This document shows positions 17,550-20,112 of a DNA stretch of 64,000 bases, in pieces. The position numbers and the translations under genes were made by a program. The DNA lies in NCBI GenBank assembly GCA_021808445.1, contig JAKBBP010000009.1, positions 10,277-74,276 of the forward strand, read 5' to 3'. The DNA comes from Pseudomonadota bacterium (GTDB lineage Bacteria; Pseudomonadota; Gammaproteobacteria; Burkholderiales; Burkholderiaceae_C). The stretch's first letter is position 1; every line of letters starts with the position of its first letter. The notes below the pieces were generated by a model, which worked only from the letters and a program-made list of their open reading frames with translations, was not told the origin of the DNA and did no database searches.

Positions 17550-19046
17550 TCAGGCGTCCAGGCCCTGCTGCACCTGCTCGGCGGCGCGCAACACCGCGCG
17601 CGCCTTGGCCTCGGTCTCGCGCCATTCCATCTCGGGCACCGAGTCGGCCACCACCCCCGCGGCCGCCTGCACGTACAGCCAGCCTTCCTTGACGATGCCG
17701 GTGCGAATGGCGATGGCCAGGTCCATGTCCCCGGCGAAGCTCCAGTAGCCCACGGCTCCGCCGTACAGGCCGCGGCGCGTGGGCTCGAGCTCATCGATCA
17801 CTTCCATCGCGCGGATTTTCGGCGCCCCCGACAAGGTGCCTGCCGGGAAGGTGGCACGCATCACGTCCAGCGCGCCCAGACCGGGTTGCAGCAAGCCCTC
17901 CACGTTGCTGACGATGTGCATGACGTGGGAATAGCGTTCGATGGCGAAGGCCTCGGTCACCTGCACGGTGCCGATGCGGGCGATGCGCCCGAGGTCGTTG
18001 CGCGCCAGGTCGATGAGCATCAGGTGCTCGGCGCGCTCCTTGGGGTCGGCCAGCAGTTCGCGCTCATTGGCCAGGTCCCGCTCCTGGGTGTCTGCGCGCG
18101 GACGCGTGCCGGCCAGCGGGCGGATGGTGACCTTCTGGCCCTCGGGCGTGGCTTCCTGGCGCACCAGGATCTCCGGCGAGGAGCCGACCACCTGGAAATC
18201 GCCGAAGTTGTACAGGTACATGTACGGCGAGGGATTCAGGGTACGCAGCGCGCGGTACAGGGACAGGGGTGACTGCTCGAAACGCTTGCGCAGTCGCTGC
18301 CCCACCTGCACCTGCATGAAGTCGCCCGCGGCGATCAGTTCCTTGGCTCGCACGACCGCACGCAGATAGTCGGCATGCTCGAACTCATGCTCCACCGGCG
18401 TGACCTCGGCGGGCGGCATCGCGGGCGCCTTCACGCTGGCACGCAGCAGCTGGCGCAACTCGAGCAGGCGGGCCTGCGCGCGCGCATGCGCATCGGGCTG
18501 TGTCGGATCCGCGTAGACGATGAAGCTCAGGCGCCCCGACAGGTTGTCGATCACCGCCAGCTCCTCGCATTGCAGCAGCAGGATGTCGGGCAGGTCCAGG
18601 GGGTCCGGGCGCGGGTTGCGCCGCGCCGAGGCCTGCAGGCGAGGCTCGATGTAGCGCGCCGCGTCGTAGCCGAAGTAGCCCGCCAGCCCACCGCAAAAGC
18701 GCGGCATTCCCTGCGGCAGCGCCACCTTGTGGCGGGCGCGGAACGCCTCGATGAACGCCAGTGGGGGCTGCTCGGAACGCTCCACCTCGACTCCGCCGCG
18801 CAGCACGCGGGTGATGCCGCCTTTGACGCGCAGCTCGGTGCCCGCGGCCAGGCCGATGAAGGAATAGCGCCCGAAACGTTCTCCGCCCACCACGGATTCG
18901 AGCAGGAAGGTGTTGCGCGCGGCCCCGCCCTCGGTCAGCTTGAGGTACAGCGACAGCGGAGTCTCGAGGTCGGCGAAGGCCTGCGAAACCATCGCGATAC
19001 GGTTGTAGCCGGCGTCGGCCAGGGCCTGGAATTCGGATTCAGTCAT
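17550..19046 (-). CDS. trpE: Anthranilate synthase component I
   Basis: FLLESVVGGERFGRYSFIG, SPYMY, IRPLAGTRPR, EHLMLIDLARND, YVQAAAGVVADS. Confidence 0.97.
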   Translation of the reverse strand: MTESEFQALADAGYNRIAMVSQAFADLETPLSLYLKLTEGGAARNTFLLESVVGGERFGRYSFIGLAAGTELRVKGGITRVLRGGVEVERSEQPPLAFIEAFRARHKVALPQGMPRFCGGLAGYFGYDAARYIEPRLQASARRNPRPDPLDLPDILLLQCEELAVIDNLSGRLSFIVYADPTQPDAHARAQARLLELRQLLRASVKAPAMPPAEVTPVEHEFEHADYLRAVVRAKELIAAGDFMQVQVGQRLRKRFEQSPLSLYRALRTLNPSPYMYLYNFGDFQVVGSSPEILVRQEATPEGQKVTIRPLAGTRPRADTQERDLANERELLADPKERAEHLMLIDLARNDLGRIARIGTVQVTEAFAIERYSHVMHIVSNVEGLLQPGLGALDVMRATFPAGTLSGAPKIRAMEVIDELEPTRRGLYGGAVGYWSFAGDMDLAIAIRTGIVKEGWLYVQAAAGVVADSVPEMEWRETEAKARAVLRAAEQVQQGLDA

Positions 19047-19136
19047 GCTTGTCTCGCTGGCGGCCATGCGGCCACCGGATGGTCAGGTGCCGCCCGCGAC
19101 GGGCGGTCTCGGATGCGCGGCGCAGCGCGCCGCCAA

Positions 19137-19226
19137 TCACGCCGCGCAGCGGCGCAAGCAGCAGCGGCGCCAGGGCCAGGCTCCCCGGTCCACCGAACCC
19201 AATGCGTGCTTGCGAGAGACGAACAT
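19137..19226 (-). CDS. Putative trp leader peptide (29 aa, Trp-Pro-Trp)
   Basis: MFVSRKHALGSVDRGAWPWRRCCLRRCAA with TGG CCC TGG; ends about 90 nt before trpE; not in ORF track. Confidence 0.6.
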   Translation of the reverse strand: MFVSRKHALGSVDRGAWPWRRCCLRRCAA

Positions 19227-19260
19227 CGACGAGTACCCAGAAAGGGCGTGCAGGAGTCGG

Positions 19261-19290
19261 ACAATACCCAAGCTGCGCGAACTTTAGCAA
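19261..19290 (-). promoter_or_regulatory. Candidate sigma70 promoter for leader-trpE
   Basis: Minus strand TTGCTA-N18-TATTGT. Confidence 0.45.
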
Positions 19291-19379
19291 ATCCCCGCGC
19301 AGGCCTGCCCTTGTGGTTCGGCCGATTGCCAAGGCGCCGCGATGCAGGCACACTGCCGCCCCATGCGAACGATCGTTCG

Positions 19380-19411
19380 CTTTTCCGTCCACGAGCTTTT
19401 CCGTCCACGAG
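19380..19411. repeat. Perfect 16-bp tandem duplication
   Basis: CTTTTCCGTCCACGAG x2, running into the RBS of the next gene. Confidence 0.9.
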
Positions 19412-19419
19412 GAGCCCTG

Positions 19420-20112
19420 ATGCGCCTGCCCCGCCCATCCAGCCTTGCGCGCCGCGCCGCGCTGCCCCTGCTGCTGCCCCTGCTGCTGTCCCTGCCCATG
19501 TGCCTGGCGCTGCCGCGCGTGGCCTGCGCCGCGCAGGCCAGCCCGGCGCTGGCCGCGTCGCCCCCCAGCGCCGCGGGGGCGACTCCCCTGAAACTTCACG
19601 GCGTGGTCGTGCCTCCCGGCGCGCAGGTGGGCAGCAGCCCGTTGCGACTCAATGGTGCCGGGACGCGCTATTTCCTGATTTTCAAGGTCTATGTCGCGGA
19701 GCTGTACCTGCCGCGCACCACCCACAGCGCCAAGACGGCGCTGGGCATGGCCGGGCCCAAGCTGATGCGCCTGGTCATGCTGCGCGACGTCAGCGGCAAG
19801 GAGCTGGGCGACAAGCTCACCGAGGACATCAAGAACAACGTGCCCGCGGCCGACTTCGCCACCATGATCACGGGCCTGGCGCGCATGGGCGGCCTGTTTG
19901 CCGATCGCCACGAACTGCGCGAGGGCGATGTGGTCGAGCTGACCGACGTGCCCGGCAAGGGCATGCAGATCAGCATCAACGGACAGGTCGAGGGGGCGCC
20001 CTACGCCGACGCGAACTTTTTCGACAACCTTCTGCGCGTGTGGCTGGGGCCGCGGCCGGCCTCGCAGCGACTCAAGAAGGCCCTGCTGGGCCATTCCGAC
20101 GACTCGAACTGA
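19420..20112 (+). CDS. Chalcone-isomerase-like exported protein
   Basis: Signal peptide; LNGAGTRYFLIFKVYVAELYL, FDNLLRVWLG..P. Confidence 0.85.
   Translation: MRLPRPSSLARRAALPLLLPLLLSLPMCLALPRVACAAQASPALAASPPSAAGATPLKLHGVVVPPGAQVGSSPLRLNGAGTRYFLIFKVYVAELYLPRTTHSAKTALGMAGPKLMRLVMLRDVSGKELGDKLTEDIKNNVPAADFATMITGLARMGGLFADRHELREGDVVELTDVPGKGMQISINGQVEGAPYADANFFDNLLRVWLGPRPASQRLKKALLGHSDDSN

Follow-up and report, generated by a model that had tools for sequence, protein, structure and literature searches.

Organization of the trpE locus

The analysed stretch of DNA, referred to below as the window, comprises 64,000 nucleotides (nt) of contig JAKBBP010000009.1 from the genome assembly GCA_021808445.1 of a Burkholderiales bacterium. 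The window contains the gene trpE, which encodes anthranilate synthase component I and is preceded on the same strand by a previously unannotated open reading frame (ORF) of 29 codons with two closely spaced tryptophan codons. The trpE start codon is the ATG at 19046, and the encoded protein begins with MTESEFQALADAGYNRIAM. The leader ORF starts with the ATG at 19226 and ends with the TGA at 19139-19137, 90 nt 5' of trpE. Its two TGG codons are located within a near-invariant core that is predicted to form a local hairpin. The conservation of the ORF indicates that it is a trpL-like leader of trpE. A Trp repressor TrpR (PF01371) was not detected in the genome, which is 92% complete. The features that define the leader are:

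17550-19046, minus strand: trpE, anthranilate synthase component I, matching Pfam PF00425 (Chorismate_bind) and PF04715 (Anth_synt_I_N)
19137-19226, minus strand: leader ORF (trpL-like), 29 codons and a stop codon, product MFVSRKHALGSVDRGAWPWRRCCLRRCAA, kept in 15 genomes of the same genus
19170-19178, minus strand: regulatory codons TGG-CCC-TGG, encoding Trp17 (19178-19176), Pro18, and Trp19 (19172-19170)
19168-19190, minus strand: near-invariant 23-nt core GACCGGGGAGCCTGGCCCTGGCG, encoding DRGAWPWR
19168-19191, minus strand: predicted Trp hairpin
19191-19183, minus strand: predicted 5' arm of the Trp hairpin, CG[A]CCGGGG
19182-19176, minus strand: predicted loop of the Trp hairpin, AGCCUGG, which holds UGG17
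19175-19168, minus strand: predicted 3' arm of the Trp hairpin, CCCUGGCG, which holds UGG19

The leader is conserved upstream of trpE in Burkholderiales

A search with TrpE identified orthologues in 36 of about 40 relatives, with sequence identities of 58-98%. The upstream regions of 23 genomes of the window's genus (congeners), in which the loci were located through TrpE alone, were aligned, and the leader is present 5' of trpE in fifteen of them. The genus consensus for leader codons 1-20 is MF[VI]xRKHxxGSxDRGAWPWR. The codons of this segment contain synonymous changes among the fifteen congeners, at Ser11 (TCG/TCC/TCA), His7 (CAC/CAT), Lys6 (AAG/AAA), Ala8 (GCA/GCT/GCC), and Arg14 (CGG/CGA). 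The tail of the leader past WPWR differs in both sequence and length, and the surrounding DNA cannot be aligned. Since codons 1-20 were kept with synonymous changes while the tail and the flanks diverged, the leader carries the signature of a translated and selected ORF. Judged by this pattern of conservation, it is not a chance frame.

Leaders of the same type occur well beyond the genus. A species-wide scan of one genome per species with the pattern GAYCGNGGNGCNTGGCCNTGGCG returned at least 120 loci, and in about 110 of the 120 listed the motif is within a short ORF located 57-390 nt upstream of trpE. The leader was found in more than 100 species from at least three families of Burkholderiales, including the genera Burkholderia, Paraburkholderia, Caballeronia, Trinickia, Pandoraea, Acidovorax, Delftia, Comamonas, and Rhodoferax, as well as Roseateles/Pelomonas, Rubrivivax, Ideonella, Aquabacterium, and Sphaerotilus. 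The consensus of the wider leader family is MF[ILV]xRKxxxGSxDRGAWPWR. An even sample of 401 genomes from the whole order was searched with up to three mismatches allowed. The motif was present in all ten genomes of the window's family, in five of about eleven genomes of one large-genome family, all of which have Burkholderia-type leaders, and in one genome of a third family. A fourth family contained a variant, and the motif was absent from most of the approximately 60 other families in the sample. The reversed pattern, used as a control, matched 4 of the 401 genomes. Every exact and one-mismatch match tested is positioned 5' of trpE. The preliminary description of the locus had proposed a Trp-codon leader peptide before trpE, recommended searching the trpE upstream regions of Burkholderiales for the WPW peptide, and named a lack of conservation of the Trp codons as one result that would speak against it. 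The search recovered the peptide next to trpE, and both UGG codons are present in all of the leaders found (15 congeners, 10/10 family genomes, and 119 loci).

Open frames and hairpins are common in DNA with 69% guanine and cytosine (GC), and the z score of the leader fold is only -1.0, both of which agree with the possibility that the leader is a chance open frame combined with chance GC complementarity. The finding of the same ORF 5' of trpE in more than 100 species from at least three families, with a near-invariant 23-nt core, refutes this explanation, which we consider to have practically no chance of being correct. A folding z score is weak evidence in a genome with 69% GC, and therefore the case for the leader rests on comparison.

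None of the leader peptides matched a Pfam or NCBIfam model, and one of seven exact leader peptides is present, unnamed, among 15 billion proteins. Searches of Rfam identified no match with E <= 10 in the window region and none with E <= 0.1 in eight loci of the family, including Burkholderia-type ones; the covariance model of the Trp leader (Trp_leader, RF00513) matched neither the window nor the eight loci. The leader is not described in the literature searched; classical reviews may contain an earlier mention. Other families of the order have different Trp leaders before trpE. One of them (locus L030) encodes MLHILNRMAGWWRW, followed by a stop codon, and has a canonical GUAAUC/GAUUAC-U6 terminator.

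The Trp codons are embedded in a conserved core predicted to form a hairpin

The genome contains a single copy of the 23-nt core. The codon usage of the core was compared over 119 leaders. The aspartate codon is GAC in 118 leaders, and the arginine that follows it is encoded by CGG in 117 and CGA in 2. Glycine is encoded by GGA (102) or GGG (17) and never by GGC or GGT, alanine by GCC, GCT, or GCA and never by GCG, and proline by CCC (114) or CCT (5) and never by CCG. The codon for the final arginine of the core varies freely over all four CGN triplets. The shunned codons rank among the commonest in such GC-rich genomes, and therefore the constraint on the core is not on the peptide alone.

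The minimum free energy (MFE) fold and the RNAalifold consensus, in which positions 37-44 pair with 52-58, both predict the Trp hairpin, with UGG17 in the loop and UGG19 in the 3' arm. The third bases of the Asp, Arg, and Pro codons are all paired in the model, which fits the synonymous-site constraint at these three codons. One locus combines CGA with CCT, which forms an A-U pair, and another combines CGA with CCC, which results in a mismatch. The variant leader from a divergent family, which ends with VWSAAPGAWPWRS and is encoded by GCT CCG GGA GCC TGG CCC TGG, has the amino acids DR replaced by AP. In the corresponding sequence, GCTCCGGGAGCCTGGCCCTGGCG, CCGGG is still able to pair with CCUGG in a shifted register. 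The stem is otherwise invariant, and therefore the variants are consistent with the hairpin rather than a covariation proof of it. We found no fixed-register extension of the hairpin. In locus L023 from another family of the order, which encodes the leader MFPDIKRLAITPGTFEAWLWRCWQST followed by a stop codon, a local hairpin (CCAGGC/GCCUGG) likewise holds the first UGG in its 3' arm.

Codon 17 encodes the first tryptophan in 82 of 100 distinct peptides, the divergent variant among them. The segment before the first tryptophan is thus fixed at 16 residues, whereas the number of codons after the second one varies from 1 to 18. The invariant DRGAWPWR, the fixed N-terminus, and the free tail form a pattern like that of nascent-chain arrest peptides, and the synonymous sites are constrained too. 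The divergent variant has an unrelated N-terminus and AP instead of DR, and keeps the RNA pairing and the position of codon 17, which points to a constraint at the level of RNA rather than of the peptide.

Predicted promoter and start of the leader

19281-19289, minus strand: conserved promoter box TGCTAAAGT, TGn and -10 hexamer TAAAGT, predicted extended -10 element
19290-19285, minus strand: TTGCTA, followed after 18 nt by TATTGT
19261-19266, minus strand: TATTGT, probably not the conserved promoter element

All 16 leaders from the genus and its near relatives have the promoter box, with the consensus TG[CA]TA[AC]A[GT]T, 38-65 nt 5' of the leader ATG (54 nt in the window). The sole conserved promoter element in the genus is TTTGCTA[A/C]AGT. 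Of 83 loci from the other genera of the family, 74 have a -10-like hexamer, usually part of TGCTACACT, that ends 6-10 nt 5' of the leader ATG, and the distance is exactly 6 nt in 40 of them. Because the box is positioned 6-10 nt before the leader ATG in these sister genera, it represents an extended -10 element and not a -35 element. Transcription in the window is predicted to start near 19274, about 7 nt past the box. According to the promoter predictions, the leaders of the sister genera are probably leaderless or nearly so. It was previously proposed that the leader is transcribed from a TTGCTA-N18-TATTGT promoter, with TATTGT as the -10 hexamer. Both hexamers are present in the window, but the pair was not called by the promoter scan, and TATTGT occurs only in the near-identical genomes L001-L005 and is absent at this spacing in the other congeners. 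The possibility that an upstream in-frame start makes the leaders of the genus leaderless was rejected, as such a start is not conserved and three congeners have in-frame stop codons in this region.

The congeners that lack the leader (L006-L012 and L016) have a promoter box, TTTGCTACAGTG, 51-73 nt 5' of trpE, and there is no Trp-rich frame between the box and trpE. In the 5' untranslated region of L012, the box is directly followed by TGGCCGTGG, either a possible scar from a deletion of the Trp motif or a chance resemblance.

The spacer between the leader and trpE lacks an intrinsic terminator

19153-19141 and 19133-19117, minus strand: two GC hairpins flanking the leader stop codon, from the MFE fold of the spacer
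19090-19106, minus strand: hairpin h4, CCGCCCG-UCG-CGGGCGG, with a perfect stem of 7 base pairs and no U tract after it, from the sequence and folding
19059-19076, minus strand: hairpin h5, GGUGGCC-GCAU-GGCCGCC, which ends 12 nt before the trpE AUG, from the RNAalifold consensus

The 90-nt spacer has a GC content of about 77%, compared to 69% for the genome, and folds into four hairpins. An alternative pairing of 8 base pairs, GCGCGGCG/CGCCGCGC, around the leader stop codon can be read from the sequence and has no statistical support. The congeners form a hairpin at the position of h4 from other sequences (GCGGCC/GGCCGC, CGCCGGC/GCCGGUG, and CGGCCGGC/GCCGGCCG). Compensatory changes in h5 were identified by RNAalifold at the pair 195:214, which is GC in 9 sequences and AU in 2, and at the pair 194:215, which is GC in 11 and CG in 1. 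A weak Shine-Dalgarno (SD)-like GAGA comes after h5. In several genera, an A-rich linker, (U)GAAUGAA(U/C)C or GAUGAAC, is located just before the last spacer hairpin (Comamonadaceae-type loci L074, L064, L084, L118, and L142; congeners L013 and L017-L020). The linker is replaced by CACCUGACCAUCC in the window.

The minus strand of the window contains no terminator-like site in this region, and no T run longer than two between the Trp codons and trpE. None of the 16 spacers from the genus contains a T run longer than three, so that the absence of a U tract after the h4 hairpin, which had been noted in the window before, extends to the whole set. The genome contains 127 canonical sites with a hairpin and T run, compared to 43 in the reversed-sequence control, and some of them have runs of T7-8. 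The organism thus uses U-tract terminators elsewhere, and the missing U tract is not its general property. Of 83 loci from other genera of the family, only 9 combine a strong hairpin with a T4 run after it. Some loci of the Rubrivivax/Ideonella type (L041, L123, L048, L057, and L047) have a more compact design, in which a U-rich stretch (UUUUAGUUUGCC, UUUUUGUGU) surrounds the leader stop codon and the preceding hairpin uses the Trp-codon region as its 5' arm.

The Burkholderia-type branch of the leader family

All 20 Burkholderia-type loci contain the leader MFLNKKRSLSSIDRGAWPWRRWSR followed by a stop codon, a small hairpin CCUCnnnnGAGG, the hairpin CGCUGAAG...CUUCAGC, and a T run. The run is T5-6 in 18 of the loci and TTTCTT in the remaining two, both of which belong to Pandoraea. 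The small hairpin has a GAGGU(A)CGC segment in common with the terminator base, and its 5' arm overlaps the stop codon. Since this branch has a canonical hairpin and U6 terminator, trpE of Burkholderia, Paraburkholderia, and Pandoraea is probably controlled by classical transcription attenuation. A helix that pairs leader codons 2-12 with the segment following the Trp codons is supported only in the Burkholderia branch, where its mean z score is -1.16. The same helix was rejected elsewhere, with z scores of +0.17 in the window's genus and -0.38 in other genera.

Leader codons 4-7 (AAUAAAAAACGG) of the Burkholderia-type loci (L031-L135, for example L037, L097, and L051) are complementary to the U tract of the terminator (CCGUUUUUU). 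The two segments co-vary, as CAAGAAACGG/CCGUUUCUUG in Pandoraea and ACAGAAAACGG/CCGUUUUUUGU in Caballeronia. Through this complementarity, the two ends of the leader RNA would pair with each other after termination, as in a stable small RNA.

The presence of a genuine terminator at the equivalent place in a sister branch, together with two GC hairpins that keep their positions in the spacer, would agree with classical attenuation in the window's genus, where h4 or h5 would serve as a terminator lacking a U tract, possibly aided by NusA or NusG. However, the T runs of the 16 genus spacers do not exceed three, the organism's own terminators carry T7-8 tails, and no antiterminator competing with h4 or h5 was identified. 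Furthermore, hairpins lacking a U tract terminate bacterial RNA polymerase poorly in vitro. We therefore regard termination at h4 or h5 as quite unlikely.

Tests of coupling between the ribosome position and trpE

The position of the ribosome on the leader might reach trpE through the accessibility of its start region. In the ribosome-footprint test, the RNA was folded by partition-function calculations with a ribosome placed on Trp17, Trp19, or the stop codon. The mean unpaired probabilities of the trpE start region in the free, Trp17, Trp19, and stop states were 0.47, 0.49, 0.52, and 0.47 in the genus, and 0.43, 0.44, 0.43, and 0.42 in 81 other loci. In the window, the value was 0.36 in all states. 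A switch that occludes the ribosome-binding site (RBS) is not supported, since there was no consistent change in accessibility over approximately 100 loci or in a subset focused on the SD sequence. There is likewise no support for the Trp motif masking the trpE start region directly, in the style of mycobacteria, as the z scores of the duplex were -0.35 and -0.45, which is the level expected by chance. The MFE fold and RNAalifold suggested a long-range helix that joins the 5' end of the leader (AUGUUCGUCUC, GGGUUCGGU) to the trpE start region. This helix was rejected because the comparison of RNAduplex energies with those of dinucleotide shuffles resulted in a mean z score of +0.17 over 114 loci. 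A second small ORF coupled to trpE through overlapping ATGA or GTGA was rejected as well, since there is no conserved frame. Many alternative GC pairings can be formed within the leader and the spacer, none of which is conserved or better than those in shuffled sequences.

These tests bear on translational attenuation, in which the ribosome position would remodel the spacer so that the RBS of trpE is hidden when Trp is plentiful and opened upon stalling, with effects on transcription being secondary. It agrees with the lack of an intrinsic terminator, the location of h5 12 nt before the AUG, and the weakness of the SD sequence. In models of the three closest relatives (L002-L004), placing a ribosome on Trp19 increased the accessibility of the start region from 0.32-0.33 to 0.48-0.61. 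In the model of the Comamonadaceae-type locus L084, where the motif pairs beside the SD sequence, a ribosome on Trp17 increased the accessibility of the SD sequence from 0.40 to 0.60. The leaderless short ORFs encoding cysteines in mycobacteria provide a precedent (bioRxiv 10.1101/834739). However, the accessibility effect vanishes across loci, the window has the same value in every state, and the complementarity of the start region to both the Trp motif and the leader 5' end is at the level of chance. Therefore, we consider translational attenuation unlikely. Of the two non-classical outputs suggested in the preliminary description, Rho-dependent termination and RBS occlusion, the latter is unsupported by the accessibility and complementarity tests; the suggestion of a non-classical output as such agrees with the lack of an intrinsic terminator in a genus whose genome uses U-tract ones.

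Proposed mechanism of trpE control

Based on the comparison of the leaders, a mechanism of trpE control can be proposed. Transcription would start near 19274, about 7 nt past the box TGCTAAAGT, and a ribosome would translate the 29-codon leader. A shortage of charged tRNA-Trp would make the ribosome stall at UGG17 or UGG19, both of which are inside the local hairpin (CCGGGG / AGCCUGG / CCCUGG). The hairpin and the downstream RNA would then be folded otherwise than when the ribosome reaches the stop codon at 19139-19137, and this difference in the fold would decide the expression of trpE. Since the window's genus and most of its family lack the U tract, the output is probably not intrinsic termination. 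The output might be Rho-dependent termination or polarity, secondary to the poor translation of trpE on the structured spacer, with direct translational control as the next candidate. The assignment of the output to Rho or polarity is a tentative guess. The sensing half of the mechanism, which includes the translated leader, the Trp codons, and the hairpin, is well supported by sequence comparison, whereas we infer the stalling, the role of the Trp hairpin, and the nature of the output step. Overall, we think it likely that the ORF is a genuine trpL-like leader that controls trpE by sensing Trp through ribosome stalling and operates without an intrinsic terminator in the window's genus, most likely with Rho-dependent termination or polarity as the output.

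Several observations weigh against this proposal. We found no conserved pair of mutually exclusive helices through which the position of the ribosome could act on h4, h5, or the start of trpE. The 226-nt leader folds no better than shuffled sequences (z = -1.0). The excess of C over G in the spacer amounts to +0.04 for the window and averages +0.10 over the genus, compared to +0.05 in the trpE coding sequence, and is positive in 105 of 118 loci. A spacer that is GC-rich and highly structured, with a skew of only +0.10, makes a poor classical Rho utilization (rut) site. The leader ATG of the window's genus is 38-65 nt from the promoter box and lacks an SD sequence. The entire leader is missing from eight of the 23 congeners, although their TrpE is about 90% identical to that of the window, and the leader is therefore dispensable in this genus.

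The last two observations, together with the lack of a recognizable output structure, raise the possibility that the leader is a decaying relic in the genus. According to this explanation, an insertion of approximately 45 nt parted the leader from its promoter, which is 6-10 nt away in the sister genera, and removed the leaderless start. The terminator would have eroded, and trpE would be constitutive or otherwise controlled. However, the ORF is intact in fifteen congeners, and its N-terminal 20 codons were kept with synonymous changes, while the flanking DNA diverged beyond alignment. The identity of TrpE within the genus decreases to about 80%, which implies ample time for decay. Therefore, it is very unlikely that the leader is a relic, and the Trp-sensing leader remains our preferred interpretation.

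Within the interpretation of the leader as a Trp sensor, we speculate that the core may be a self-standing sensor module. The hairpin would present UGG17 in the loop and UGG19 in the 3' arm at a fixed distance of 48 nt from the start codon, which in the sister genera would be the 5' end of a leaderless transcript. The module would be coupled to interchangeable outputs, namely an intrinsic terminator in the Burkholderia branch and a terminator-less output, probably based on Rho or translation, in the window's family. We hold this idea to be somewhat doubtful. The hairpin could be an element for pausing and synchronization of RNA polymerase, or it could enhance stalling jointly with the DRGAWP nascent chain. 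By analogy with Sinorhizobium meliloti, the released leader RNA or peptide might act in trans. Segments of 12-14 nt complementary to the core are numerous in the genome, and are located in ordinary coding DNA at a frequency expected by chance.

Neighbourhood of trpE

In most Burkholderiales, gph is located directly 5' of trpE in the same orientation (rpe-gph-trpE). In the window, a gene encoding a chalcone-isomerase-like protein (PF16036; 19420-20112, plus strand) sits between gph and trpE in divergent orientation to trpE. The gene trpG does not come after trpE in the window. A palindromic hairpin GCGAACGATCGTTCGC followed by TTTTCC is positioned at 19365-19380 on the plus strand, approximately 40 nt upstream of the ATG of the chalcone-isomerase-like gene at 19420, and is kept in several congeners. 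It is adjoined by a tandem duplication of two 16-nt units (CTCGTGGACGGAAAAG) at 19380-19411, which is present only in this genome.

Comparison to known attenuators and significance

Attenuation of trp genes by leader peptides is textbook knowledge, and is documented and curated mainly for gamma- and alphaproteobacteria and actinobacteria. The leader described here is a lineage-specific form of trp attenuation and is functionally of the trpL type. It resembles trpL of Escherichia coli and other enterobacteria (RF00513) in that a short ORF directly precedes the first trp gene, contains two Trp codons a few codons before its stop, and has these codons in a hairpin-forming segment. The hairpin and U-tract terminator of E. 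coli is shared with the Burkholderia branch. In contrast to the enterobacterial system, the leader family shows no sequence or structure match to RF00513, a proline separates the two Trp codons, and a local self-contained hairpin takes the place of the 1:2 helix. Furthermore, the 23-nt core and the fixed length of the 16-codon N-terminal segment are kept across families, and the window's genus does without the U-tract terminator.

E. coli tnaC and Salmonella mgtL/mgtA are Rho-dependent leader-peptide attenuators in which the leader is adjoined by a defined rut site that is C-rich and unstructured. As in the preliminary proposal for the window, the ribosome position on a short leader ORF would decide on read-through without an intrinsic terminator. 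The 90-nt spacer differs from these systems in being GC-rich, forming four hairpins, and having a weak excess of C over G.

The attenuator trpL (rnTrpL/peTrpL) of S. meliloti trpE(G) also precedes a trpE that stands alone, in a bacterium whose trp genes are likewise split, and its conservation likewise goes beyond the needs of sensing, which raises the question of additional functions of the RNA or peptide (PMC6614838, PMC7298713). Functions in trans were shown experimentally for rnTrpL and peTrpL (PMC6614838, PMC7298713). The peptide is different from that encoded in the window, and the canonical terminator belongs to the S. meliloti system. The leaderless polycysteine short ORFs of mycobacteria (Ms5788A) share with the leader the sensing of an amino acid, the lack of an intrinsic terminator, and a high GC content (bioRxiv 10.1101/834739). 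The leaderless start is predicted to be shared by the sister genera, where the 6-10-nt distance was found in 74 of 83 loci, but not by the window's genus. In mycobacteria, the stalled ribosome blocks the formation of a duplex that hides the downstream RBS (bioRxiv 10.1101/834739), whereas an RBS-masking duplex was not found here. As far as we searched, the invariance of the core at the nucleotide level across families, the fixed position of codon 17, and the exchange of the output between families have not been described.

A large part of Burkholderiales, including the much-studied genera Burkholderia, Paraburkholderia, Pandoraea, Acidovorax, Delftia, Rhodoferax, and Rubrivivax, shares one unannotated trpE leader. 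Its sensor core hardly varies in nucleotide sequence, while the output differs between families. The leader represents an easily closed annotation gap, since its peptide has no Pfam or NCBIfam model and its RNA has no Rfam entry. It provides a natural comparison for amino-acid-sensing leaders of GC-rich bacteria that lack a U-tract terminator, and a test case for what a leader needs in addition to its regulatory codons, be it a pause hairpin, fixed spacing, or a leaderless start. If the core is indeed a sensor module with exchangeable outputs, it would be comparable to a riboswitch aptamer that is combined with different expression platforms.

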